Part shown: piece after piece, positions 5,632-38,416 of the stretch
How positions within the stretch are numbered: the first letter of the stretch is position 1
Layout: every line of letters starts with the position of its first letter
IMG/VR virus record: IMGVR_UViG_3300012359_000001
Coordinates: 1-38,416 of that record
From: a virus
Taxonomy: Duplodnaviria; Heunggongvirae; Uroviricota; Caudoviricetes
DNA: 38,416 nt
Strand: one strand, 5' to 3'
Made by a program: the position numbers and the translations under genes
The notes under the pieces: model-generated
What the model saw: the letters and a program-made list of their open reading frames with translations, nothing else
Database searches by the model: none
What the model was told of the DNA's origin: nothing

Positions 5632-6921
5632 ATGGTAGCAGCACCAAAGTTAAAAGCGGTATCACGTCCTCACGAACTGGCATTTATTGAGGTTGCGCGG
5701 AAGATACGGGAGAAACAGATCACTTCTCTTGCAGATATTCCGACCGATCTCAAACAGTTTACTTCAGTTGCGCAAGCCCTCTGTACTGCAAGGATAGACT
5801 TTGATGAGGCCAATTTCTGGACAGTCTATACCTCCCTTGCCATTGATCATCCTAAGTTAGCAGAATGGCGCAAGTCGATTGAAACCAGTTCAGAAATTGA
5901 GGAAGAGGAGGAAGACCCGCGTTTTGTCACTGGTACGAATGGCAAAAAAGTGTTTCGTACTCTTTCTATGCAGGAAATAAAACAACTCCCACGTGCTGAA
6001 TGGCAGATCCCTGGTATCTATCAGAAGGTGTCTGTTTCCATGACCTACGGGGATGCAAATACAGGGAAGACCTTCGTTGACCTGGACATTGCGCTTCACC
6101 TTGCCTATGGGATGTTCTGGCAAGGTCGGCAGCTCATGCAGTCTCGCGTGCTCTATATCTATGGAGAAGGGAATGAGGGACTTGCCAACAGGGTTGAGGC
6201 ATGGCAGAGGAAGCATGGGAAGGAGGATAGCGACTACATACGGTTCATCTGTTTTCCTGTGCAACTGATGACTGAACTTACTATCCTGTGTGACACGATT
6301 GAAGATCAGGAAGAGACACCTGGACTGATTGTACTCGATACGTTTTCAGTCTGCGCTAGTGGCATCCCTGAAAACGATAATGTGGAGGTTGCAAAGTTTA
6401 TCGCCTGTGCCTCCCATATTAAACGAACGTACAAAACCAGGGTACATATCATCCATCATGCAGGGAAGAATGGCGACTATCGGGGAGCTGCCGCGTTCAG
6501 GGGAAATGTAGACACCATGACGTTACTAGTACGAGAGAGCAATGAGTCTCCAATAGTCATGGTCTGCAAGAAACAAAAGGATGCAGCCTACTTTAGTGAC
6601 ATCAAGTTACAACTTGAGCAGATCTCCCTTGGCATCGACCCAGATAGTTACGAACCGATTACCTCCTGTGTTGTGATTACGTGCGATCTGCAAACACATA
6701 CAGAAGAGAAGACAGAGCAGGAACGGGCAACTATGTTGAAGGTGCTTGCTGACAACGGGCGTATGAGCAGTGCGAAATGGAAAGATGCTTGTATCGACGC
6801 CGGGATCAGTCGCAACGTCTGGTACACACAAAAAGACTACTTGACCCAAACAGGAAAGATACAAGAGGATATTACCGGTCCAGGGAAGCCCATCTTTTAT
6901 AGTGAGAGGAAACTATCATGA
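5632..6921 (+). CDS. AAA_25/RepA-like replicative helicase
   Basis: Walker A GDANTGKT, Walker B LIVLDT, IIHHAGK and RGAAAFRG motifs. Confidence 0.9.
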   Translation: MVAAPKLKAVSRPHELAFIEVARKIREKQITSLADIPTDLKQFTSVAQALCTARIDFDEANFWTVYTSLAIDHPKLAEWRKSIETSSEIEEEEEDPRFVTGTNGKKVFRTLSMQEIKQLPRAEWQIPGIYQKVSVSMTYGDANTGKTFVDLDIALHLAYGMFWQGRQLMQSRVLYIYGEGNEGLANRVEAWQRKHGKEDSDYIRFICFPVQLMTELTILCDTIEDQEETPGLIVLDTFSVCASGIPENDNVEVAKFIACASHIKRTYKTRVHIIHHAGKNGDYRGAAAFRGNVDTMTLLVRESNESPIVMVCKKQKDAAYFSDIKLQLEQISLGIDPDSYEPITSCVVITCDLQTHTEEKTEQERATMLKVLADNGRMSSAKWKDACIDAGISRNVWYTQKDYLTQTGKIQEDITGPGKPIFYSERKLS

Positions 6922-26088: not shown

Positions 26089-26460
26089 ATGACAGCACAG
26101 ACAACTACCGACACATTCAGGGTCATTTATACATGCAGGAACCGCAACTGCACACATATATGGGCGTTGGAGTATCGCAACGAGGGTACAGACCGTTTCG
26201 GTCTTCCCTATGGCACGCGTGAATTAAAAGCACATGAGACAGCAACAGCGTATGATATCCGTGATCGTGGGCGATCACATCAGGCTGATGTTATGGGTGA
26301 CTTGCGTTGTCCTAAATGTACTTGCAATCTGCCAAAGAGTGTGCGTGTGAACGGACACTATAGTGAAGCCCATAAATGCGATGCAAGGTGTATGGGAGCA
26401 AAGGGACCTAATTGTGATTGTCAATGTGGTGGAGAGAACCACGGCGCGAGTTATCTCTAG
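26089..26460 (+). CDS. Cys-rich phage hypothetical protein
   Basis: HKCDARC..A.GPNCDCQCGGENHG motif. Confidence 0.75.
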   Translation: MTAQTTTDTFRVIYTCRNRNCTHIWALEYRNEGTDRFGLPYGTRELKAHETATAYDIRDRGRSHQADVMGDLRCPKCTCNLPKSVRVNGHYSEAHKCDARCMGAKGPNCDCQCGGENHGASYL

Positions 26461-26520
26461 CAATTGAGACAATTGAGTACCGTTCCTGGTACTCAATGGA
26501 TGGAAGGGAAAATAACAGTT

Positions 26521-26898
26521 ATGACCAAAGCGAACGAAATTGCATCGAAGTTTTTAGTGCAGGCACTCGACCATGCCAAAGAGCGTCTGGTCTTTTGGAT
26601 TGAGGATAACAATCTGAACATCATTGATGATGTGTGTTCCTTCGGCCTTGTCTCTAATCTCCTTACTGCAAAGCAGGGAGATTGGATTGAGAATGTGATC
26701 AAGGCGACACCAGGGTTTCGCAACAAAGAGATCTTTTGTACGTTCGATGGTGAGAGAGTCGGAACGTGGAAGTTGAGGGAGTTCAACTATCACCTCTACA
26801 TCGACTTTGAATTAAGTGTGGAGTTTGTAACCCGATACCTGCAAGTCGATCCTGAGATTGTGGCAACTGCAAGAAGGGAGAGCAAGTATGCAGTCTAA
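26521..26898 (+). CDS. Hypothetical protein
   Basis: ORF track, start trimmed to MTKANE. Confidence 0.6.
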   Translation: MTKANEIASKFLVQALDHAKERLVFWIEDNNLNIIDDVCSFGLVSNLLTAKQGDWIENVIKATPGFRNKEIFCTFDGERVGTWKLREFNYHLYIDFELSVEFVTRYLQVDPEIVATARRESKYAV

Positions 26899-27241
26899 CT
26901 ATCAAGAGAGTTACGCTGCTGGTGTGCAGTACGGCAAAAACTACCGCCGTACATACCGCACATGGTCAAGCGATACAGGAGTAGCGCGTAGAGCCACTGA
27001 CGCGATCATGGGTGCTTATGATTACTCAGGCTTCTTCAATGGTGTTATTAAAGGGTTGCAGCCGCTTTGTTCTCAGGACTTTGACCGTGTGTTTAAGCAA
27101 AATGAACAGAGCGCCTCTTACAAGGCACAGGCACTTCTGAATGGAGCAAGGTTGCAGGTTGCCACTCAAGACGCAACACACTATGACGCGACGCTTGAGC
27201 ACTGGCAGAAGATAGGCGCACTGCTTGTGGTTGCGTCGTGA
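26888..27241 (+). CDS. Hypothetical protein
   Basis: GGGAG RBS before MQSNYQ. Confidence 0.6.
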   Translation: MQSNYQESYAAGVQYGKNYRRTYRTWSSDTGVARRATDAIMGAYDYSGFFNGVIKGLQPLCSQDFDRVFKQNEQSASYKAQALLNGARLQVATQDATHYDATLEHWQKIGALLVVAS

Positions 27242-27504
27242 AAGACTATACCACAAGCGAGGTTGCTATCATTCTCGGCATGCAACCCGAAACAATCACA
27301 CGGTACGTCAAGCGGGGAGTGATTGAAGGTGTCAAGCGAGGACGTGACTATTTTGTCACTCAGCAGACGCTAGAAGCGTACCAGCAAAAACGACGACGTG
27401 CAGAGAGAGCCAGGAAAATGCATGCTGAAGGTATCTCTGCTCAAGAGATTTGTAAAGTATTGAAGATAGCAGAAGGTACCTTGTATCGGTACCTGAAAGG
27501 ATAA
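27238..27504 (+). CDS. Double-HTH protein (excisionase-like HTH plus Hin-type HTH)
   Basis: YTTSEVAIILGMQPETITRYVKRG; ISAQEICKVLKIAEGTLYRYL. Confidence 0.8.
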   Translation: MKDYTTSEVAIILGMQPETITRYVKRGVIEGVKRGRDYFVTQQTLEAYQQKRRRAERARKMHAEGISAQEICKVLKIAEGTLYRYLKG

Positions 27505-27510
27505 ATAATC

Positions 27511-28542
27511 ATGAAAACAATCACACTGCTGTATGCCAGTGAGGATGCATCCTACGCACAGCAACTAGAGCGTCAACTACTTCACGCAACCAATCGCACG
27601 GTACGCATCCGTCATAATGATGGTTCTATCCCTGGCAACGAGATCGCGCAAGCCTGGAATGAGAGTCTGTACGGTTCACATCTTTTCGTTGTGCTGGTGA
27701 GTGCCGATCTCTCCAATGCAACAAAGAAGTTAGCCTATATACAGCAAGCGAACACACTAGCACCTGATCGAATAGTAGCCGTTTACTTGCGTCCCTGTTG
27801 GATTGAGGGAGGGAGATTTGAAGGGATAGCAGTCATGCCCTCAAAGCCGATCACCTCTTACTCAGGGTATGCCAAAGAAGAGGCGTGGGTACACATCGTA
27901 CAACACATCATCGGCATGGTTGCACAAGTGAATGATAGTGATTTGCCAATACGACCCGTAACTAGAAGGGATCAGGTATCTTCTTCTCCCGCAAAACAAC
28001 ACCCCTGGCAACGAATGCAAGAACCAGTTGAGGTGTGCGTGCAAAAGAATAGAACCGTTGAGAAGAAGGTAGAGCCAATTGTGTTTAAGCCTGAGCGAGA
28101 AGTACAGGAGTGGGATTGCACCTTGCTCTATGCATCTCAGGACGAGCGGTGGATACCTCTTGTTGAGCGTACATTACGGGTACTACAGCGTGGTATCAAA
28201 ATACGGTTCACTATTCTAAAACCAGCAGACGTTGAACAAGCAATAGAACAAGTACAGCACTCACGCCTCACATTAGCACTGCTTTCACCCGACTTTCTTG
28301 CTTCTGATTGGATGGAGCATTACAAATACCTTAGCATGTTACTAGAGAGGAAGGAACAGGTCATCGTTCCAGTAAAGTTACGCGATTGCCAATGGACAAG
28401 GACTGTGAGCGTGCCACGTCAGGGAGCCATAGGCAAAACAGGCAATGATGCTCTATGGAGTGAAGTATCTCAGGAGATCATAGCGGTATTGCGTAAGAAC
28501 AACCCTGACGATATCCCACCTGCTAATCCGTATTCCAGATAG
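27511..28542 (+). CDS. Tandem TIR-like domain protein
   Basis: Two LLYAS.D starts; LLSPDFLASDW and VIVPVKLRDCQW are typical of bacterial TIR_2. Confidence 0.75.
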   Translation: MKTITLLYASEDASYAQQLERQLLHATNRTVRIRHNDGSIPGNEIAQAWNESLYGSHLFVVLVSADLSNATKKLAYIQQANTLAPDRIVAVYLRPCWIEGGRFEGIAVMPSKPITSYSGYAKEEAWVHIVQHIIGMVAQVNDSDLPIRPVTRRDQVSSSPAKQHPWQRMQEPVEVCVQKNRTVEKKVEPIVFKPEREVQEWDCTLLYASQDERWIPLVERTLRVLQRGIKIRFTILKPADVEQAIEQVQHSRLTLALLSPDFLASDWMEHYKYLSMLLERKEQVIVPVKLRDCQWTRTVSVPRQGAIGKTGNDALWSEVSQEIIAVLRKNNPDDIPPANPYSR

Positions 28543-28580
28543 CAGCAAGAGAGAGTGACATCAAACACCGCTCTCTCTTA

Positions 28581-28904
28581 TTATTTTGCTGCAACATCCC
28601 ATATCCCTAACAGAAACGGCTCAGTACCCCCAGAATACGCAACCCACACTCGTACCTCATACATCCCCGCGCTAGCAGTGTCGGCAACCGATGGTGCAAA
28701 CGTGATCGTTCCATTATTCGGTTCTCCTACAATCTGCACAGTGCCGGTCATGGTACGCTCAACACCGCTAGACACATTTTTCATCGTGAGCGTGATACTA
28801 CTGGCAAGGATAGTGGTCAGGTCAATGGATGCGCCGCTATCATCAACAAGCGGAATAGTCCATACAGGTATTTGTTGTGTCGTGAGCCACGGATTAATTG
28901 GCAT
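28581..28904 (-). CDS. BppU-like Ig-fold tail/baseplate protein
   Basis: IDLT..SITLTM..NGTITF..DTASAGMYEV pattern. Confidence 0.65.
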   Translation of the reverse strand: MPINPWLTTQQIPVWTIPLVDDSGASIDLTTILASSITLTMKNVSSGVERTMTGTVQIVGEPNNGTITFAPSVADTASAGMYEVRVWVAYSGGTEPFLLGIWDVAAK

Positions 28905-28908
28905 ACGG

Positions 28909-31242
28909 TTAGTTTCCCCTTCCTGTAACTACTGCATCCCTGCCTATCGCTTCTCCTGAGCCTGATGGTGCTACACCGATTACATGTGCATCCTTGCCTA
29001 TTGCTCCTACAGAGGTGTGAGGTGTCCGATCTGGCTGCAAACAAAACCTGCTCATGGCATCATGCCCGATCACACCCGATTTTTGAGCAAAGAGTAGAGA
29101 GACATTCAGGGAGAGTGAGAATGATTGCAGACCTAGCCTGAGTGCGATAGTGTGAACCGACGTATCGAGCAAACGAAATCGTGTAAGCGCATTGACTGAT
29201 CGTGCTATCGCCTGCTGTAAACAAAACCGTGTGAGACTGTCCAGGGATTGAAGCGCAGACTGAAGACGGTACCGTGCTACGAGGTCATACGGATGGACAC
29301 TTGATTGTTGTCTATAGCGAAGTTGACCATCCCGCTGTGTTTCTGCAAGTTGTCGAAACCGTGCAGCAAGTGAGAGCAATTGAAGAGACGACTGCACACG
29401 AAATCGGGCGATCAGGTCATGGAACGAGGTACCCGATTGCATACCGAGACGAACCTGAATATCCTGCAAGAGAAGGGCAGATTGTAAACGATAGCGAGAA
29501 GCAATACTTCCACTCGTCGCAACAAGTAATCTGAAGCGCGCAATGAAGTCCAGCGTCTTGACCAGTCTGAACCGTGCGAGAACATCTGATGCTTTGACCA
29601 ATGAGAAACGAGCAATCAGGTCATGCAACGTGTCGCCCGACTGCACACGAAATCGAGCTTGCACATCCTGTAGAGTTTGAACGGACTGCACACGAAATCG
29701 GGCGGCGAAGTCAAGCGCCTGTACCACTCTGAACCGTAGGAGCGCATCAAGTGATTTGACTAACCTGAACCTGCTGACAAGGGTATGATAGGTGTCCCCT
29801 GACTGTTGACGAAATCGCGTGAGTGCATCAATCACCACCTGATTGACCACTTGTAGTCTAAATCTACTGACGAGATCGTGATAGGCCGTACCACTCTGCA
29901 AAGAGAACCGTGTGAGCGTATCTGTCAGGCGCGTGATGACCAATGAGAAACGAGCAACTACATCATGTAAGGTTGCACCGCTCTGCTGTCGAAATCGGCT
30001 TACAACGTCTCTATTCTGTATAGCAGATTGAACACGAAAACGAGCAACCAGATCGTGGAAGGTGCCACCTGACTGTACTCTGAAGCGTGCTTGCAAGTCT
30101 CCTGTCTTCACTAGTGAGAAGCGTAAGAGGGCATCCAGGGACTTGACGAGTCTGTAGCGCGCTACAAGATCGTGATAGGCCGTACCACTCTGAAGACGAT
30201 ATCTTGCAAGCGCATCCTTGAATTGAAGTGCAGACTGTAACCGGTACCGTTGAGCAAGATTAAGGGTGGCAGTAGCGAGTAACCGGTATCTGGCTTGTAC
30301 ATCGTGATTAATGACACCACTCTGTTGCCTGAACCGAGCGATGAAGTCCAGTGTCTTGACTAAGCGGAACCGCGCAAGGAAGTCTAGTGATTTGACGAGT
30401 CTGTAGCGTGCTACGAGATCGTGATTGAGCACTCCTGATTGCTGTCGAAATCTGGCAACTGCATTGACACTCTTTGCAACAAGCAAACGGTACCGTGCCT
30501 GGACATCATGATTGAGTACTCCACTCTGTTGCCTGAACCGTGCTTGCAGGTCATGATTAATGACACCACTCTGCACCCTGAAACGCGAAATTGCATTGAC
30601 ACTCTTGGAGACAAGTAATCTGAAGCGTGAACCGATGTCGTTGTAGTTGACTGCATCTGTGATCGTGAGGCTATCAAAGTCCCAGGTGCCTGATGTCGCT
30701 GTTGCATTTATAGTGATACCAAACCCACCCGCTCCTGTGATACTGCCATCCGTTCCGCTCACACTCCAACTTGTGGGTTCAGTGTTCCCGTCGAGCCAGA
30801 TTTTACACCCCAGAAATGTCCCGACTGCTCTGAAGCGTATCCAGTAAAATGAGCCAGTGGTAATAGTCAGGGATGTCGTGAACAAGTCGGTATTGGTGCC
30901 GGTTACAACCTTACTGATAGCAATACCGATAGTGGAGTTATTGGCTGATAGGCGTCCCATGTAGTACGTATTCGTTGCGGTTTGTCGTAGAGAGATACCA
31001 GCTCGTGTAACAACCGAAGAATTAACCTTGACGCGTACCAGACCTTCAGCATTCGCGCTTGTAGTTGATCCCAGTTGGATGTTAGCGGCAGCAGAGATGC
31101 CCGTTGCATGCAGTTCATTGGACGCGATGGAGAGCGTAGGAGACCCTTGTGTCGTGGCCCAGGTATCCCCGCCTGATGACGTGCCCCATCCTGATTGATT
31201 TGCGCGTGTCCCTGTATCGCTACCGATTGTTTTTGTGCTCAT
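28909..31242 (-). CDS. Putative tail fibre-like protein: N-terminal lectin-like beta domain plus about 37 R[FY]R repeats
   Basis: Repeats read directly from the translation; position in tail cluster. Confidence 0.85.
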   Translation of the reverse strand: MSTKTIGSDTGTRANQSGWGTSSGGDTWATTQGSPTLSIASNELHATGISAAANIQLGSTTSANAEGLVRVKVNSSVVTRAGISLRQTATNTYYMGRLSANNSTIGIAISKVVTGTNTDLFTTSLTITTGSFYWIRFRAVGTFLGCKIWLDGNTEPTSWSVSGTDGSITGAGGFGITINATATSGTWDFDSLTITDAVNYNDIGSRFRLLVSKSVNAISRFRVQSGVINHDLQARFRQQSGVLNHDVQARYRLLVAKSVNAVARFRQQSGVLNHDLVARYRLVKSLDFLARFRLVKTLDFIARFRQQSGVINHDVQARYRLLATATLNLAQRYRLQSALQFKDALARYRLQSGTAYHDLVARYRLVKSLDALLRFSLVKTGDLQARFRVQSGGTFHDLVARFRVQSAIQNRDVVSRFRQQSGATLHDVVARFSLVITRLTDTLTRFSLQSGTAYHDLVSRFRLQVVNQVVIDALTRFRQQSGDTYHTLVSRFRLVKSLDALLRFRVVQALDFAARFRVQSVQTLQDVQARFRVQSGDTLHDLIARFSLVKASDVLARFRLVKTLDFIARFRLLVATSGSIASRYRLQSALLLQDIQVRLGMQSGTSFHDLIARFRVQSSLQLLSLAARFRQLAETQRDGQLRYRQQSSVHPYDLVARYRLQSALQSLDSLTRFCLQQAIARSVNALTRFRLLDTSVHTIALRLGLQSFSLSLNVSLLFAQKSGVIGHDAMSRFCLQPDRTPHTSVGAIGKDAHVIGVAPSGSGEAIGRDAVVTGRGN
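29030..30645 (-). repeat. Coding repeat array of 12/14/15/16-aa units
   Basis: e.g. ARFRQQSGVLNHDLV, ARFRLVKTLDFI; dispersed identical DNA blocks such as AGATCGTGATAGGCCGTACCACTCTG. Confidence 0.95.
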
Positions 31243-31734: not shown

Positions 31735-31740
31735 TCATTG

Positions 31741-31763
31741 CACCTCATAAAAATTATGAGGTG
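31741..31763. repeat. 10-bp hairpin at the left edge of the HNH cassette
   Basis: CACCTCATAA-AAA-TTATGAGGTG; covers the RBS of 31246..31734. Confidence 0.85.
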
Positions 31764-31776
31764 ATAGGGGATAAAC

Positions 31777-31805
31777 TTGCTTTACAAGTGGGTTTGTGGT
31801 ATACT
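31777..31805 (+). promoter_or_regulatory. Promoter of the HNH gene
   Basis: TTGCTT-N17-TATACT with TGn. Confidence 0.6.
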
Positions 31806-31890
31806 TGAGTGGTAATAAATGTTCAGCCTGAAAGGTGCTATCAACACCAATCAGACCTAAGCGACGTATCTGAATTGGAGACACGAAGCT

Positions 31891-32745
31891 ATGACCAAAG
31901 TATACCACATTATCCAACTGAGTCTCATCCCCCTTACTACTCCTACACGCATCTGTAAGACATGTGGAATTGATCAACCTCTGGAAGAAAACTTTCACAA
32001 GCAAATGGTAAGAGGCAAACTTATGTATAGGGTACATTGCAAAGTTTGCCGATCTAAAAAAGCAAAAGCCCTTCCACCTCGTCAAGAATGGGTAGAAGTT
32101 ACTTCTAAAGTTTGCCTGACATGTGATCCTCCAACCGAAAAACCTATCAGTGAATTTGCATTGAACAAAAGCAGTCGAGATGGGCATTGCTGGAAATGCA
32201 GAGTATGTCAGAGCAAATGGGCAACTAGTGAGGAGCAAAAAGCAAAAGCGCGCGAACGATTGCGTAGGAATAACCTTGATCCTGAGTTCCGACGTGCGAC
32301 ACAAGAGGGACAAAAAGCGTGGAGACAGCGAAATATTGAAAAATTGCGTATTCAGTGGCGTGAAAAATATGCAAATGACCCTGAGTATGCAGCACGTATG
32401 CGTAAACATGCACGGAAGTGGATTGAAGAACACCAGGATGAAATGAATGCCCACCAGCAAAAACGCAAAGCAATATTGCGCGGAGTAGAGGCAGAAGTTG
32501 TAGACTACCAGGAAGTTTTGAAATACTACGGACCCTGGTGTTACATCTGTGAGTCTCAAATCCTTGTGTCCCATAAACTTGAGTTCGATCATGTAGTACC
32601 ACTCATTCCACGTACTGGTGATCCACAGGGAACACATACATTTTCCAATATTCGCCCAACCCATAAGATTTGCAATGCACGCAAGACAAATAGACGTCTT
32701 GAAGACATGACTCCTTTTGATCGTCGCGGTCCCGATGTCTCTTAA
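31891..32745 (+). CDS. Free-standing HNH endonuclease with two N-terminal zinc-binding repeats
   Basis: CKTC..HCKVC and CLTC..KCRVC repeats; CYIC..FDHVVP..N..TH..CN HNH motif. Confidence 0.9.
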   Translation: MTKVYHIIQLSLIPLTTPTRICKTCGIDQPLEENFHKQMVRGKLMYRVHCKVCRSKKAKALPPRQEWVEVTSKVCLTCDPPTEKPISEFALNKSSRDGHCWKCRVCQSKWATSEEQKAKARERLRRNNLDPEFRRATQEGQKAWRQRNIEKLRIQWREKYANDPEYAARMRKHARKWIEEHQDEMNAHQQKRKAILRGVEAEVVDYQEVLKYYGPWCYICESQILVSHKLEFDHVVPLIPRTGDPQGTHTFSNIRPTHKICNARKTNRRLEDMTPFDRRGPDVS

Positions 32746-32751
32746 CTAACA

Positions 32752-32790
32752 TTACTCTTATTCGTAGAATAATTCTACGAATAAGAGTAA
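32752..32790. terminator. 19-bp perfect inverted repeat between convergent genes
   Basis: TTACTCTTATTCGTAGAAT-A-ATTCTACGAATAAGAGTAA; one arm includes the last codons of 32775..33509. Confidence 0.7.
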
Positions 32791-33509
32791 GACCATACGA
32801 TTACAGGTAACATCGCCGAACTTGTAGACATGTTCGGACCAGTCCACAAGGATAACGAGAAATATGCTCTATTTGCTGTAGTAGCAGCAGGAGTAGTACG
32901 AGCGGTTATAAACTGCACAGAACCTTGCAGACTTTGCCACGTAGTCAGCCATGCCGCCGAACCTGGACTCACGCTACCAGCGGTACCCGACGTGACCAAC
33001 AAGGTTGTACCCGCCGCGCCTGCACTTAAGTTTGCCGTTTGGAACGTATCGAATAGGTTTCCCTTCAGGTAGGAGGTGCTTGATGTATCAGTGGCATGCC
33101 CGTTAATGATCGGTGATCCGCTTTCCGTTCCAGGTTGCGTACCAGCAGAAGGAGCGGCATGTGTCGTGTCTGAGTAAGCAGTGAGGCTAGGAGCCGCCGC
33201 ATACGTTCCCAGATTATCCCAATCTATCCTAAAGACGTTGGAATTTGTCTTATCCCCGTCATAGGTTCCTACCTTCACACCGGTAGTATTTGCGGAGAAT
33301 GCCCAACACTCTACAACTTTTTGTGTACTTCCAGGTCGGGTATACAGGGGCCATGATGCCGATGCGGTACTGCCTGCACCTGCACCTGATGATGCAAAGC
33401 GGTACTCGTTTGCTCCCGCCGAACCCGAAAACGCGATACTCGCCCAGGTTCCAGGTGATGCATCTGTTCCTGGTGCATACTGCGATTGCAAGGTAGTAAA
33501 GTCCGAAAT
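32775..33509 (-). CDS. Ser/Thr/Ala/Gly-rich putative virion protein; probable ATT start
   Basis: GAGG is 8 nt before in-frame ATT (MSDFTTLQSQY); ORF track uses TTG 33491. Confidence 0.75.
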   Translation of the reverse strand: MSDFTTLQSQYAPGTDASPGTWASIAFSGSAGANEYRFASSGAGAGSTASASWPLYTRPGSTQKVVECWAFSANTTGVKVGTYDGDKTNSNVFRIDWDNLGTYAAAPSLTAYSDTTHAAPSAGTQPGTESGSPIINGHATDTSSTSYLKGNLFDTFQTANLSAGAAGTTLLVTSGTAGSVSPGSAAWLTTWQSLQGSVQFITARTTPAATTANRAYFSLSLWTGPNMSTSSAMLPVIVWSYSYS

Positions 33510-33672
33510 TTTATTTTCCTCATTTCTTCTACAGAACCGTCTTATATGCTCGTTCTGTGATATAGCTATATTAACTTCTATTGCAGGTTATCTATCTATC
33601 ACGCACTACCGTACAACAGTAAGATCGGCTGTTTGTCTCTCTTTTTCAGCATACACCCAGACATAGATATTT

Positions 33673-33855
33673 TTAATGTACTAACCTGAGCACCAGAAAC
33701 ACAATGTCAAGCACAATCGTTATAACGGTAATAATGACCATAATGATGTTGAGCACATTACTTCGTGTACCCTGATACGTCCCGCTTGCAGGCCATAACG
33801 CAATCACAAAGAGATTGAGAATGACGAGAAACTCGAAGTCGAGTAATGAATGCAT
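33673..33855 (-). CDS. 60-aa two-TM membrane protein
   Basis: GAGG RBS before MHSLLD; two hydrophobic helices. Confidence 0.6.
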   Translation of the reverse strand: MHSLLDFEFLVILNLFVIALWPASGTYQGTRSNVLNIIMVIITVITIVLDIVFLVLRLVH

Positions 33856-34014
33856 ACTATCCTCACTTGCTTTCTTTCTTCTCAGTATAGTCTTCATGCC
33901 TACAAGATGAACACCTGACAACCAAACGTAAGTACATCTTGACAAAAGAGAATAAATGGTGTAAATAAAGGAATAGGCCATTTGAGACATATGTAGTATA
34001 AGAAAGGGAAATAC

Positions 34015-34239
34015 ATGAAATGTATCGTTAAGAGTACGGTGATCGACTGGCAAGAGAAAACAATGGAGGTTAAGACCGTGGATGGAGAGGCACATACTAT
34101 CCCGCTTGACACGACCATCACCGTTACGATGGTTGGCTATCCGGATCGTGAGCAGAAGACAATGCTAGCACGAGAGTTAGGGGAGTACATGGGTAAAGGG
34201 TACACGATTGAACAGATTGAACATGAGGAGAGCAGGTAA
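34015..34239 (+). CDS. Hypothetical protein
   Basis: AAGGG RBS; TTGACA at 33939. Confidence 0.65.
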   Translation: MKCIVKSTVIDWQEKTMEVKTVDGEAHTIPLDTTITVTMVGYPDREQKTMLARELGEYMGKGYTIEQIEHEESR

Positions 34240-34472
34240 TGAATAGTCATCTTTGCCATACTAGCGCACGGTGTGATCTTAATCAACCAATCAAGCGCTT
34301 GGATAAGAGAGAGGATCAAGCGACCGTTCACAACGTTAGGCAGATGAAAGATGGTATTGATCCTCTCGTCAAGTCAGACCATCGCTTCAGAGGCTTTACC
34401 AAAGATGAGCAAGGGCACCGTCACGGTGTCTACAGACTTATAGGAACAGTAATCTGGATTGAAGAACTATAG
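34239..34472 (+). CDS. Hypothetical protein
   Basis: TAATG overlap. Confidence 0.55.
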   Translation: MNSHLCHTSARCDLNQPIKRLDKREDQATVHNVRQMKDGIDPLVKSDHRFRGFTKDEQGHRHGVYRLIGTVIWIEEL

Positions 34473-34480
34473 GAGAGACA

Positions 34481-35422
34481 ATGAATAATCTAGAGCATGC
34501 ACTCAAGGCAATGAACGATTTTCAGACAGGTATGGAAGCGATACAGACCGGTACAGGAGAGTCAGCGAACGATATGAAAGAGATAGGTAATACTCTTTTG
34601 CGGCTGGCAACACCAGAAGTATCCGTACTCGACTTACCAATAGCAAAGTTACAGATTGTCCAGTCACATGATACCGTCGAATCAGACTGGCTCAAACGCG
34701 GGATGCTAGAACCAGCACTTGCGCAAAACACTGATGGGCTATGGGTACTCTCAGTCCGGAGACAGGGAGAGCATAGCAAATTCGAGATCCCCTTTATTGG
34801 AAGTGAAATCATCCTTGCTGATGCTGAGTTGGGACTCGTTGTTGTGCTTGTAGGCTATCATGGTTCATCTACTGAGAAGTATGGACGCCTGGGATACATG
34901 ACACAAAAAGGCCAGTTCTACCGCTACTACCGACAAGAGGCTAGCGGTGATTGGACTACGGTTGCATGGCGCAATCTCAACGACGAACTACGCTCATTCA
35001 TCATTTCAACGATAGAGGAGAGCGGACTCGCTTGGGCACGAAAACCAGGAAAGTTACAGGCAGAACGCAACTCGCCTACAGTGTACCCGACGATGACTAC
35101 CTACAAAGTAGTGAGGCTGATTGAGAAACGGTACTACTCGCTCTATGATCCAGCTCAGGAGTACGTGTTAGGGGAAAAGGTAAAAGAGCCTGTCAAGAAA
35201 CATCATGGAGGCGGGTTTTTCTCTTATCCAACTATCGAAATGGGGCAAAAGTACTTTGCTGATTGCCTCACATCCATCCCGTTTCATGCAGAAGTAGACA
35301 CATCACAACTTGCTTTGTTGGAAGTTGAAATTGGCGGTAAGTGCATTAATTACGGACATAAGATGTGCTCTACCTACCTACGCCCAATGAAGGTACTAGA
35401 GATACGGGATATCCAGAACTAG
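34481..35422 (+). CDS. Hypothetical protein
   Basis: 313 aa; GGAG RBS. Confidence 0.75.
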   Translation: MNNLEHALKAMNDFQTGMEAIQTGTGESANDMKEIGNTLLRLATPEVSVLDLPIAKLQIVQSHDTVESDWLKRGMLEPALAQNTDGLWVLSVRRQGEHSKFEIPFIGSEIILADAELGLVVVLVGYHGSSTEKYGRLGYMTQKGQFYRYYRQEASGDWTTVAWRNLNDELRSFIISTIEESGLAWARKPGKLQAERNSPTVYPTMTTYKVVRLIEKRYYSLYDPAQEYVLGEKVKEPVKKHHGGGFFSYPTIEMGQKYFADCLTSIPFHAEVDTSQLALLEVEIGGKCINYGHKMCSTYLRPMKVLEIRDIQN

Positions 35423-35432
35423 TTGGCACCAC

Positions 35433-35477
35433 TTGCAAATTGAGCACGTTTGCCTTATACTGAGAACAAGCGTGCTC
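35433..35477 (+). promoter_or_regulatory. Promoter of the tRNA-like RNA, with inverted repeat flanking -10
   Basis: TTGCAA-N17-TATACT (35433-35461); GAGCACG (35442-35448)/CGTGCTC (35471-35477). Confidence 0.7.
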
Positions 35478-35566
35478 TTATAGCAAGAACATACAAACAT
35501 TGTCCAATGGTAGGACAGAAGCCTTTTAAGCTTTGCATTACAGGTTCGACTCGCACGCTTAACCCA
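35468..35566 (+). ncRNA. tRNA-Lys(UUU)-like RNA (pseudo-tRNA or mimic)
   Basis: D arm GTCC-AATGGTA-GGAC, anticodon arm GAAGC-CTTTTAA-GCTTT, GGTTCGACTC T-loop without T-stem, closing stem AAGCGTGC/GCACGCTT, 3' CCA. Confidence 0.65.
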
Positions 35567-38416
35567 CTACTGATCCACAAAGACCTTGCTCCAATCCCCT
35601 ACGTTCGGACCTGACGTGCATTGAACTGTGTAAAAAACTAATGTTGAAGCATCAGAACTACCTTGCTTTATAATAGTATTTACGTCCGTGACGAGCACTA
35701 GCAGGTCATTCAACGAATATTCCGGACAGAAGATACTCAAGAGTTGCCCTGATTTTAAACCCGCTCGTAAGGTAGTAAAGTTCCAATCCTGAGAGAGTAT
35801 TGCGTACTGAGCAACCCGCGAGTCAGCAAGGTTTTGCGCCGCCACTGCATCAAGCCCTGCAACGGTTTCAACCACCTCTACAATACCGGACGAGCCTCCA
35901 CCTTCTAACGCCGCGAGTGCTGTTTGTTGCGTAAGGCTCTCGGATGTCTTGACGACTGGTTGCTGTCCGTAGTAGTTGAAGGTAAAGGTGTCTGTATCAG
36001 ATGGAGGCGTGAGCGTCGTATCTTGCGTGATGGTCTTACTACCCACTTGATAGTAAAAGTCCATGCCAGTATCTACTCCTTGCACTCCATAGGTTGCAGG
36101 TTGTCCGTTGAGTGAGATGGAAGAGACGCTATCCACAGGATAGGCAAGTATCCAGGTCTGTGTAAAACTGTCGCCTGTGCGTGTATCGGGGATGATTGCA
36201 GTAGCGTCCATCCCTCCTACCACGACATGCCTATTGCGGTACAAGGGAGAGTACTTTTTGAGTGTTGGCTGTGTTGACCACTGGATATCCCCGTTGACGG
36301 TGGCAAGAGGCCAATCAGCCGGTACCGCTTGATGTGATTGAAAAGTGAGTACGCCTGTATCCGTGATACCATCGGTATAATTGGGACTCTTCTTGGCAAG
36401 GTCATCTAAAGCCGCTAGCACGCTACTGGTATACTGATACGCCGTTACCCCGACCACGGACCCGCTCATCAATTGTTGACCCCTCACGCTCGTTACAAGG
36501 TCACTCACGCCAGGTGTCAAGGTAGGATCGGTAGAGGTGAGGGTTTGTTTTGTCCACACACTCTTACCCGTTACGTCGTCTCCAAACTGCTGCCCACGCA
36601 CACTATACCAGTTAGTTGCAATGGCACTACTTTGCAGAAACCCGGCACTCCCTACTGAAGATAATCCTGAGTCAGTCACACTGGCTACGCTCACACCATC
36701 GAAATAGACTATGATCGCGGTACCAATCATCGTGATACGCAAATTATGGTATTGTCCACGCACAAAAGAGATCGTACCTGTTGCCAGGACTGCACTGGTA
36801 ACACTGGCTACTCGCTTGTAGATCTTGACCGTGTTGGGGTTAGAACCTGCACTAGCATCGGCAATCACCACAAAGTAGAAGTTATTAGCATCGGTATAGC
36901 GCCATGTCAACCCTGCCGATCCTGCTTGATTGAGTATCGCTTCAATCTGCATATCTTTTGCACTGAGTTGGTTCCAGACGTACAGGCCATTGGTCCCATT
37001 CGTCCCAACTAAGCGACTATTGGACGTGTCAAAAGTCCAGGTTGCATTCACGCCTGCTGCATAATTGGTTGAAGTGAAGTTACCCGAACTACTCACGGCA
37101 AACGTATCACTCACACTTGCAGGCTGACTCGTGATGGTAGGGATAGCCGCGCCACTGGTAGCAGTTGTCCATGCCCCTGTAGCACCGATAAGAGACTCCT
37201 CAGTAAGTAGGGTGGTACCAGAGGGTACATCAGCAGTCCAGGTGATTGATGACGAGCCTACACGTCCCACCGCGCCAATAGCAAGCGATGGTGAGACACG
37301 TGTACCGGTTGCGCTATAGTTGCCGATCACAAACACCCCGATACCGGTTAAGATCGGGCTGCTATTGGCATTCTGGGTAGTCAGTGTTTCTCTAATGAGG
37401 AGTGATACACCGGACACGTTCGTTCCTGGTGTCAAGTTAGGAATAACCGCATTATTGGTACAGGTCTGATAACTACTACCCCCATTGATGCTACTCTCAA
37501 TCAGAAGCGCCGTGTTGCCAGGGGTGGTTGCATTCCAGTGGATCAGTGAGTTCTCGACCGTTGAGAGTGCCGTCAGTGAGAGTGAGGAGTGGACACGGCT
37601 TGCAGTAAAGGCGCTACTCATTACGCCAAAGTTATCAAAAAAGGCAGAGATACGAGTTGACGTGTTGTTATACAATCTTGCGCCGAGATAGCCAGATCCG
37701 CTAAAGGTGCTATCAGTGGAGTTGATATAACGAATGTTGTTAACATACACTTGATGGGATGACCCGCTCACAATAATTTGAACGTGATACGCCGCGCCTG
37801 CTACCCATCCGACCGTCGTACGCTGTATAAGCGTAGATGATCCCGCTCCACTACTGCTATTGGTCCCTCTCACGAGCGCAATGCTCGTACTTTCCATCTG
37901 AACACAGTAGGCATAGGTATCATTATTGTTTTGCCAACCAGTCGTACGGTAGACTATTCCATTATTTATGTTTGACGTAGTATCAGTGTAATGGGTAATA
38001 TCCACTTCACAGATAAAGTTTTGCCATTGCCCTGCAAAGTTGAACTGACTCCTCATCTCATCAGGTGGAGAGGATGAACCACAGCGTAACTCTAGTTGCC
38101 CATTCTCAATAGAGGTATCAGGGTTGCCGCCTGAGTCTCCATATTGTGTCTGACTCGCAAGGCTACCATCTTGCCATCCTTTATAACTACCAGTTATTTG
38201 CTCCCCTATCCCGGTAGTGTACTGCACATTAGTACGCGTCCCGGTTCCAAAGTCGGTACTATTCGCGTCAAAGTCGAATGCATCTGTTTTCGTGACAGCA
38301 TAGGAAGGTGAAATAGAAAAGGTAACATCATTGAGGACAGGAGTAATCTCAGGGTTCGGACCTCCCAGGTTGAGCGTTTCCCGTAGCGTGATTGTTCGTG
38401 ATGTCAGGTTCATACC
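35567..38416 (-). CDS. Large tail/baseplate protein with lectin-like inserts (5' partial)
   Basis: Over 948 aa, frame open to window edge, Ser/Thr/Gly-rich, repeated RETL..P.L module ends, two ConA/DUF1080-like domains. Confidence 0.85.
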   Translation of the reverse strand, partial: GMNLTSRTITLRETLNLGGPNPEITPVLNDVTFSISPSYAVTKTDAFDFDANSTDFGTGTRTNVQYTTGIGEQITGSYKGWQDGSLASQTQYGDSGGNPDTSIENGQLELRCGSSSPPDEMRSQFNFAGQWQNFICEVDITHYTDTTSNINNGIVYRTTGWQNNNDTYAYCVQMESTSIALVRGTNSSSGAGSSTLIQRTTVGWVAGAAYHVQIIVSGSSHQVYVNNIRYINSTDSTFSGSGYLGARLYNNTSTRISAFFDNFGVMSSAFTASRVHSSLSLTALSTVENSLIHWNATTPGNTALLIESSINGGSSYQTCTNNAVIPNLTPGTNVSGVSLLIRETLTTQNANSSPILTGIGVFVIGNYSATGTRVSPSLAIGAVGRVGSSSITWTADVPSGTTLLTEESLIGATGAWTTATSGAAIPTITSQPASVSDTFAVSSSGNFTSTNYAAGVNATWTFDTSNSRLVGTNGTNGLYVWNQLSAKDMQIEAILNQAGSAGLTWRYTDANNFYFVVIADASAGSNPNTVKIYKRVASVTSAVLATGTISFVRGQYHNLRITMIGTAIIVYFDGVSVASVTDSGLSSVGSAGFLQSSAIATNWYSVRGQQFGDDVTGKSVWTKQTLTSTDPTLTPGVSDLVTSVRGQQLMSGSVVGVTAYQYTSSVLAALDDLAKKSPNYTDGITDTGVLTFQSHQAVPADWPLATVNGDIQWSTQPTLKKYSPLYRNRHVVVGGMDATAIIPDTRTGDSFTQTWILAYPVDSVSSISLNGQPATYGVQGVDTGMDFYYQVGSKTITQDTTLTPPSDTDTFTFNYYGQQPVVKTSESLTQQTALAALEGGGSSGIVEVVETVAGLDAVAAQNLADSRVAQYAILSQDWNFTTLRAGLKSGQLLSIFCPEYSLNDLLVLVTDVNTIIKQGSSDASTLVFYTVQCTSGPNVGDWSKVFVDQ

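Follow-up and report, generated by a model that had tools for sequence, protein, structure and literature searches.

A partial tRNA sequence at the edge of an accessory cassette inserted in the tail operon of a soil phage

The window analysed here comprises positions 1–38,416 of IMG/VR virus record IMGVR_UViG_3300012359_000001, which are the first 38 kb of a complete soil phage genome of 102,416 bp with direct terminal repeats. Near its right-hand end, at 35433–35566, lies an element in which a predicted promoter is followed by parts of a transfer RNA (tRNA) enclosed by an inverted repeat. A preliminary description, made from the letters alone, had read this element as a rearranged tRNA-Lys(UUU) mimic with its own promoter, and had placed in it a closing stem, a D arm, an anticodon arm, half a T-loop, a spacer of about 24 nucleotides (nt) and a terminal AACCCA; promoter and parts were all found where they had been placed. 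The core of the element is tRNA-derived, beyond coincidence. As judged from sequence and context, the element most likely is a component of an inserted accessory cassette, namely a tRNA gene, truncated and situated at a mosaic junction, an RNA mimic being the minority possibility; the probability that it is a tRNA gene fragment at the recombination joint of the cassette is put at roughly 0.55.

The tRNA-derived core occupies 35500–35552 of the plus strand (53 nt) and equals tRNA positions 8–61, with a match to the Rfam tRNA model RF00005 and BLAST matches to Chloroflexota tRNAs. It contains U8, a D arm (GTCC/AATGGTA/GGAC, 35502–35516), an anticodon arm (GAAGC/CTTTTAA/GCTTT, 35518–35534, loop CUUUUAA), a 5-nt variable region, the 5' strand of the T stem and the T-loop as far as C61; the T-loop half, GGTTCGACTC, lies at 35543–35552, and all these parts are on the plus strand. 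When RF00005 was run against the whole 102,416-bp genome, a single match was obtained, at 35502–35534, with a score of 24 bits and an E-value of 5.5e-4 over model positions 10–42 of 71. The score is below the gathering cut-off of 29 bits and only part of the model was aligned; at gathering thresholds, Rfam gave nothing. The D and anticodon arms had a posterior probability of 1.00 in the cmscan alignment and show the canonical features of a tRNA (7-nt loop, U33 and a purine at 37). GGTTCGA begins exactly 8 nt past the anticodon stem, which is the canonical distance (a 5-nt variable region plus three T-stem bases) and, judged from the sequence, contributes a further improbability of ~1e-4.

The cloverleaf is incomplete. 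As had been noticed before, the T stem does not pair: ACAGG stands opposite CGCAC, and only G53–C61 can form. A 7-bp acceptor stem joined to U8 is missing, and the sole flanking stem sits 24 nt from U8. BLAST to real Chloroflexota tRNAs covered positions 10–60 of the 74-nt query only and never reached the flanks. ARAGORN called no tRNA in the window or the whole genome, and gave no plus-strand call in the element region down to 60% stringency; the tRNA-finder score that had been suggested as a check thus turned out negative. A second tRNA was not found anywhere in the phage genome, with either RF00005 or ARAGORN. Because the 3' strand of the T stem and the canonical acceptor stem are missing, the element is predicted to be unfit for processing, charging or use as a tRNA. 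Both the tRNA origin and the inability to translate, as claimed in the preliminary description, are supported by the RF00005 match and the incomplete cloverleaf.

The two intact arms resemble different tRNAs. The anticodon arm together with position 26 (AGAAGCCTTTTAAGCTTT) is identical in 18/18 positions to genuine tRNA-Lys(UUU) genes and was found in 20 IMG/VR contigs and 66 species genomes (Candidate Phyla Radiation (CPR) bacteria, Opitutia, Gammaproteobacteria and one Anaerolineae). The D arm together with position 26 (GTCCAATGGTAGGACA) agrees in 16/16 positions with tRNA-Gln(UUG) of four genomes from Chloroflexota. The loops of the Gln tRNAs are CTTTGAA or CTTTGGA, and the CTTTTAA of the element is one base from CTTTGAA; it is the anticodon only, i.e. 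a single nucleotide, by which the piece would be labelled Lys. Among the tRNAs of 401 Chloroflexota genomes, the best full-length matches were tRNA-Gln genes with 76–78% identity, and the best real tRNAs overall were 75–78% identical. In the four Chloroflexota genomes with this D arm, the tRNA-Lys(UUU) genes have TCGGG as the 3' strand of the anticodon stem versus GCTTT in the element, and the anticodon arm is therefore no copy of these genes. Its stem equals that of the tRNA-Lys of one Anaerolineae metagenome-assembled genome, of CPR bacteria and of Opitutia, and the loop CUUUUAA is universal. With a D arm of the Gln type and an anticodon arm of the Lys type, the sequence looks mosaic, which fits a phage tRNA in drift rather than a copy of one host tRNA, and the piece looks like a drifted phage-type tRNA whose homology is sharply bounded at position 8 and at C61. 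A jumbo-phage relative has 11 tRNAs according to ARAGORN, tRNA-Lys(UUU) included; the latter was considered as a parent and rejected, as its agreement with the element is limited to the loop of the anticodon arm and the two stem pairs next to it (GCCTTTTAAGC).

The tRNA piece is located at the right edge of the cassette, 14 nt from the stop codon of a tail gene. The cassette (33510–35566, 2,057 bp) stands between two tail genes, and its own genes are mostly oriented opposite to the tail operon. In the closest relatives of the 1,386-aa tail protein (L009 and L011, 64–65% identity), the tail gene is separated from the next gene (243–244 aa) by only 21–23 nt; in this phage, the homolog of the 243–244-aa gene begins at 33509, with 66% identity from residue 2, and the remaining operon is collinear with that of L009 (tblastn synteny). 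Since the gap is 21–23 nt in the relatives and the operon is otherwise collinear, 33510–35566 is taken as an insertion. The GC content of the cassette is 39–46% versus 50–53% in the flanking tail genes. Morons are self-contained accessory cassettes inserted between late genes of tailed phages, and the cassette is similar to them in being a lower-GC insert with its own predicted promoters between genes of the tail operon, at a place where syntenic relatives have an empty gap; it differs in having no clear right-end terminator, with the tRNA piece at the place where a terminator is expected.

The element, or any tRNA-like fragment, was absent from the corresponding place in all 16 fetched loci that carry a homolog of the 313-aa gene of the cassette (L002 from IMG/VR; L006–L008 and L150–L154 from Logan/ENA/JGI; L043–L049 from JGI metagenomes), and the element was not found in the tail-gene relatives L003–L005 and L009–L011 either. 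IMG/VR was searched with the exact 33-mer of D arm plus anticodon arm, with a pattern of D arm, Lys loop and T-loop, and with D arm plus T-loop allowing any anticodon; none of these gave a match. A 24-mer across the anticodon arm had no exact match in 185,579 species genomes. The other half of the tRNA was looked for at the left edge of the cassette, and no tRNA match was obtained in 33450–34100. Covariation of the closing stem, which had been proposed as a check, has no homologs to work with, as no homologous phage among those fetched carries the element.

Several gene families were searched for in the complete phage genome. No match was found for tyrosine integrase (PF00589), for which all control genomes matched, and reverse transcriptase, RNA ligase (PF09414) and Ro60/TROVE (PF05731) were not found in the genome either. 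With no reverse transcriptase and no RNA ligase encoded, retron and tRNA-repair contexts were rejected.

Ten nt past the stop codon of the 313-aa gene (34481–35422, plus strand), a sigma-70-like promoter, TTGCAA-17-TATACT, is predicted on the plus strand at 35433–35461 (−35 TTGCAA, 35433–35438; 17-nt spacer; −10 TATACT, 35456–35461). Its score is 9/12, and 5 such sites were found in 2.5 kb versus 3.4 expected, which is chance level if the score is taken alone. A TTGCAx-17/18-TA(T/C)ACT site occurs 8–12 nt past the stop of the homologous gene in two other lineages (offsets of +8 in L150/L151 and +12 in L008), the L150/L151 site having an extended −10 and a textbook terminator 23 nt further on. 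Other relatives have promoter-like sites 30–80 nt downstream of the homolog of the 313-aa gene. The recurrence in relatives makes the predicted promoter more credible than its own score does, and the arrangement suggests that the 313-aa gene travels with a downstream promoter and a short leader. The earlier claim of a promoter belonging to the element is thus plausible on account of the recurring position, although not on account of the score. The leader of this phage holds the tRNA piece, points antisense into the tail gene and is without a U-tract terminator.

The sequence TATACTGAGAA is present at both ends of the cassette, at 33876–33889 on the minus strand and at 35456–35469 on the plus strand, facing outwards to the left and to the right, respectively. 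One copy is upstream of a 61-codon open reading frame (ORF) for a membrane protein and the other upstream of the tRNA piece. They are the only full copies in the genome and may act as a pair of cassette promoters. A promoter motif common to the whole phage and centred on TATACTGAGAA was rejected, as there are two full copies only and no common upstream consensus. In several relatives, the homolog of the 313-aa gene is followed by a promoter within ~10 nt, a short leader with a strong terminator, and large genes (L150:1817–1901, L151, L008), one of which is weakly prohead-protease-like; this layout recalls a late-gene regulator placed before its target promoter, as in lambda Q and PR'-tR'.

The tRNA core and a spacer are enclosed by an inverted repeat on the plus strand. 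The 5' arm of this closing stem, AAGCGTGC, lies at 35468–35475, at the expected transcription start, and the 3' arm, GCACGCTT, at 35553–35560, directly after C61 and in place of the 3' strand of the T stem; the pairing is perfect over 8 bp. The spacer between the 5' arm and the core (35476–35499, plus strand, 24 nt) forms a small CUCUU/AAGA hairpin in the minimum-free-energy fold, and the AACCCA tail (35561–35566, plus strand) abuts the stop codon (35567–35569) of the minus-strand tail gene. The frequency of such a stem was determined by sliding the same geometry over the genome of the phage, allowing 45 nt upstream and 25 nt downstream of the core. A perfect 8-bp inverted repeat around a 53-nt core was obtained at 1.1% of positions, and at 0.1% when the 3' arm was required to abut the core. 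The closing stem is therefore moderately unlikely to be there by chance (empirical p ~0.01 or lower). Compared with shuffles, the fold energy is ordinary on both strands (z of −1.43 and −1.72). The stem is no intrinsic terminator: the loop is 77 nt, and AACCCA stands in place of a U-tract. In a terminator scan, only a weak antisense hairpin of the D arm was detected (1 found versus 1.6 expected).

In the reading that we prefer, a fragment of a phage-type tRNA gene (positions 8–61) would have been left at the right-hand recombination joint of the 2,057-bp accessory cassette, inserted between two tail genes in opposite orientation. Being just behind the promoter that travels with the 313-aa gene, the fragment would probably be transcribed as the start of a short RNA running toward the tail gene, and an RNA containing the tRNA piece would have no tRNA-related job. 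The intact D and anticodon hairpins would reflect a recent break rather than selection, and the 8-bp flanking stem may be what is left of an acceptor stem after two insertions or deletions, what is left of a promoter-proximal hairpin, or a coincidence. This reading is favoured because of the sharp edges of homology, the insertion boundary, the uniqueness among relatives and databases, the mosaic sequence and the fact that none of the searched tRNA-related genes is present. It corresponds to the decayed tRNA that the preliminary description had kept as a fallback. Truncated and pseudo tRNA genes occur in mosaic phage genomes, and the element is like them in having intact internal arms and missing ends, in lying at a module boundary, in being missed by tRNA finders and in being absent from relatives. 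It differs from them in its perfect 8-bp inverted repeat and well-placed promoter, which are unusual for a plain scar.

Other observations weigh against a mere fragment. Plain decay should have put point mutations into the stems of a pseudogene, yet pairing is perfect in the D stem, in the anticodon stem and in the outer stem of 8 bp, and both defects are exactly at domain borders. The closing stem is scarce in the genome, as described above, the predicted transcription start is the first base of this stem, and the position of the promoter recurs at nearly the same offsets in relatives. In addition, the missing element in relatives is weak evidence against a function, because no phage closer than ~65% protein identity (tail protein) was available. 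The intact helices, the rare closing stem and the placing of the promoter argue for a functional, promoter-driven, tRNA-like small RNA of ~95 nt, in which the 8-bp stem would close a scaffold that shows a D hairpin and a Lys(UUU)-type anticodon hairpin. Such an RNA would bind or titrate a host factor that recognises the anticodon arms of tRNAs, e.g. an anticodon nuclease or a tRNA-modifying enzyme, without entering translation. Its anticodon arm is identical, letter by letter, to that of genuine tRNA-Lys(UUU) genes, and both defences that target tRNAs and counter-measures in the form of phage tRNAs are well known (PMC11464382, PMC12409363, PMC11555353). We nevertheless consider a functional RNA unlikely. 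There is no homolog in the searched relatives, in IMG/VR or in the species genomes, and hence no covariation; the fold energy is no better than that of shuffles (z −1.43); without the T stem there is no L-shape; and a terminator is lacking after the element. The D arm is of the Gln type with the loop one base from Gln, and the anticodon stem is unlike that of tRNA-Lys(UUU) in the Chloroflexota genomes that share the D arm. AriB of E. coli requires U36-A-A-U-C|A41 plus U16 in the D-loop (PMC12409363); in the element, U-A-A-G-C-U is present together with a short D-loop, AAUGGUA, so the determinants UAAU and U16 are absent. Moreover, the known counter-measures of phages are working, cleavage-resistant tRNAs and not decoys (PMC11464382, PMC11555353). 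The more specific proposal, that a stable ~95-nt RNA from the promoter at 35433–35461 is a non-translating decoy or sponge for a tRNA-targeting nuclease or an anticodon-modifying enzyme, is rather improbable, and the tRNA-Lys decoy against PrrC or AriB, as first envisaged, is unsupported on the grounds just given.

It is doubtful, and somewhat more so, that the outer hairpin is the working part and the tRNA piece a passenger in its loop. The hairpin would then be a remnant of a promoter-proximal or inter-operon element for RNA stability or termination, which separates the convergent transcripts of cassette and tail genes. The genes on either side of the element indeed converge on it, in relatives a hairpin follows within 20–45 nt of the promoter behind the homologous gene (with a U-tract in L150/L151), and the hairpin downstream of the homolog in L006 uses the same words, AAGCGTGCT / GCACGCTT. 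The 8-mer common to L006, however, is within chance for the size of the region and comes without collinear homology, and it turns up often in these phages, coding for Ala-Arg-Phe in a repeat protein. Furthermore, no U-tract follows the stem on either strand, a loop of 77 nt makes a poor terminator, and the only terminator-like match is the weak antisense D-arm hairpin found once against 1.6 times expected. Genes for tRNAs are the usual targets of integration, and an attachment-site (att) remnant, i.e. host tRNA sequence that the cassette would have retained from an ancestor able to integrate, had been named as an alternative; the homologous gene of L006 is directly downstream of a tyrosine integrase. 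This origin is very unlikely for the element, given that PF00589 is without a match in the 102-kb genome with its direct terminal repeats, that the piece is internal (8–61) and misses the 3' end which att cores carry, that no 24-mer identity was found in the 185,579 species genomes, and that the best real tRNAs in the 401 Chloroflexota genomes are only 75–78% identical. Least probable of all is a chance resemblance to a tRNA. The 24 bits below the Rfam cut-off of 29 and the ordinary fold energy would agree with it, but the E-value of 5.5e-4 is genome-wide for a single family and the match is the only one, GGTTCGA is at the exact canonical distance, and the D and anticodon arms are identical to real tRNA-Gln (16/16) and real tRNA-Lys (18/18), respectively.

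The element was also compared with known systems. The tRNA-Lys(UUU) and other tRNAs of phage T5 neutralise PARIS/AriB (PMC11464382, PMC12409363), and phage tRNAs evade retron and other tRNA-cleaving effectors (PMC11555353). The element shares with the T5 tRNA-Lys a phage-borne Lys(UUU) anticodon loop and an anticodon stem that may differ from host tRNA-Lys at positions 39–41, as in the resistant T5 tRNA. The tRNAs of the T5 type are complete, can be aminoacylated and replace the cleaved host tRNA, whereas the element cannot replace a cleaved host tRNA because the T stem and the acceptor stem adjoining U8 are missing. To our knowledge, a decoy mode has been shown for none of these counter-defence phage tRNAs. 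YrlA-type Y RNAs of bacteria and phages (Rfam RF02553) have a tRNA-like module and travel with Ro60/Rsr. The element, as predicted from its sequence, is similar in that tRNA-like parts of a small non-coding RNA are enclosed by a long stem; it is different in that YrlA mimics the acceptor/T/D part and replaces the anticodon arm, while here the T and acceptor parts are the ones that are missing. Identity with a Y RNA was rejected, as no Rfam family besides tRNA was obtained up to E = 10 and there is no TROVE/Ro60 (PF05731) gene. Overall, the element does not have the defining properties of a tRNA, a counter-defence tRNA, an att core, a Y RNA or an intrinsic terminator.

If the element is a scar, it would be a cleanly documented case of the entry of an accessory cassette into a phage tail operon, with the break inside the T-loop, the most conserved sequence of a tRNA. 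It would also serve as a warning against taking a tRNA fragment for a Lys mimic because of its anticodon, the loop being here one base from that of Gln. If, on the other hand, the RNA were functional, it would be the first one from a phage to mimic just the D and anticodon part of a tRNA without being a tRNA, and would offer a testable route to RNA decoys against anticodon nucleases; as a decoy, it would represent a novel way of counter-defence by RNA only, unlike the resistant functional tRNAs described to date.

The other genes of the cassette and its neighbours are as follows. The 61-codon ORF (33673–33858, minus strand) encodes a hydrophobic protein, likely with two membrane helices, and has a GAGGA ribosome-binding site with TATACTGAGAA 22 nt upstream of it. 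The first plus-strand gene, orf74 (34015–34239), has a 64% identical copy upstream of the 313-aa homolog in L002, so the two genes are linked there as well; orf77 (34239–34472, plus strand) has no relative among the fetched loci. To the right of the cassette, the 3' part of the 1,386-aa tail protein gene (35567–38416, minus strand, extending past the window) runs convergent with the element and encodes a 3-keto-disaccharide-hydrolase/lectin-like domain. The tail gene after the cassette (33489–33509, minus strand) seems to start with ATT (33509–33507), 8 nt past a GAGGA; homology to relatives sets in with the following codon, and upstream no ATG, GTG or TTG is in frame. Entry of the cassette may have replaced the original start region of this gene. 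The tail operon (24983–43163 of the genome), collinear with that of L009, is broken up in three places at least by segments that are foreign or run on the opposite strand: this cassette, an HNH cassette at ~31735–32775 and a plus-strand block at ~26089–28959.

The 313-aa protein had no match in Pfam, PHROG or the PDB sequences. More than 100 metagenomic homologs with 48–76% identity were found, in varied contexts: directly downstream of a tyrosine integrase in L006, which holds the closest homolog found (76% identical over the aligned part), and before large genes in L008 and L150–L153. The AlphaFold2 model has a mean predicted local distance difference test (pLDDT) value of 84, and its C-terminal domain (~200–313) would have an ADP-ribosyltransferase-like or DUF7666-like fold. 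In VIA-align, 2aua_B ranked first (Z 9.1), and Arr, pertussis S1, Rhs toxins and PARPs came next, at Z 4–6; in the ESM Atlas, the C-terminal domain resembled DUF7666 clusters, and Foldseek of the model against the PDB gave nothing at E ≤ 0.001. An H-Y-E or ExE catalytic set may be provided by the conserved residues H242-G-G, Y291 and E307 (or E281-x-E283). The sequence and fold comparisons established no link between the 313-aa gene and tRNA.

The L006 locus, a Logan contig of 74.5 kb, contains two adjacent odd tRNA-like genes (6115–6198 and 6210–6345, both on the minus strand), which are missed by ARAGORN at default settings. One has an RF00005 score of 40.5 bits, with the anticodon loop region replaced by 22 nt that include the palindrome GCGTGCACGC. 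In the second gene, a D arm of the Glu type is combined with a good T arm and acceptor stem, and ~70 nt are inserted in the anticodon region. A homology of the 24-nt spacer of the element to a small-RNA region of L006 and L045, and of its closing stem to the terminator of L006, was considered and rejected: the 8–9-mer and a 15/21 ungapped stretch are at chance level, and the alignments are not collinear. That region is a conserved small transcription unit downstream of the 313-aa homolog (L006:5085–5200 and L045:1985–2075, plus strand in both). It has a promoter, an RNA of ~80–100 nt with GATTGTCCA...GTGGA.GATCACATAAAGA, and a terminator whose stem covaries between the two loci, and it probably specifies an undescribed phage small RNA.

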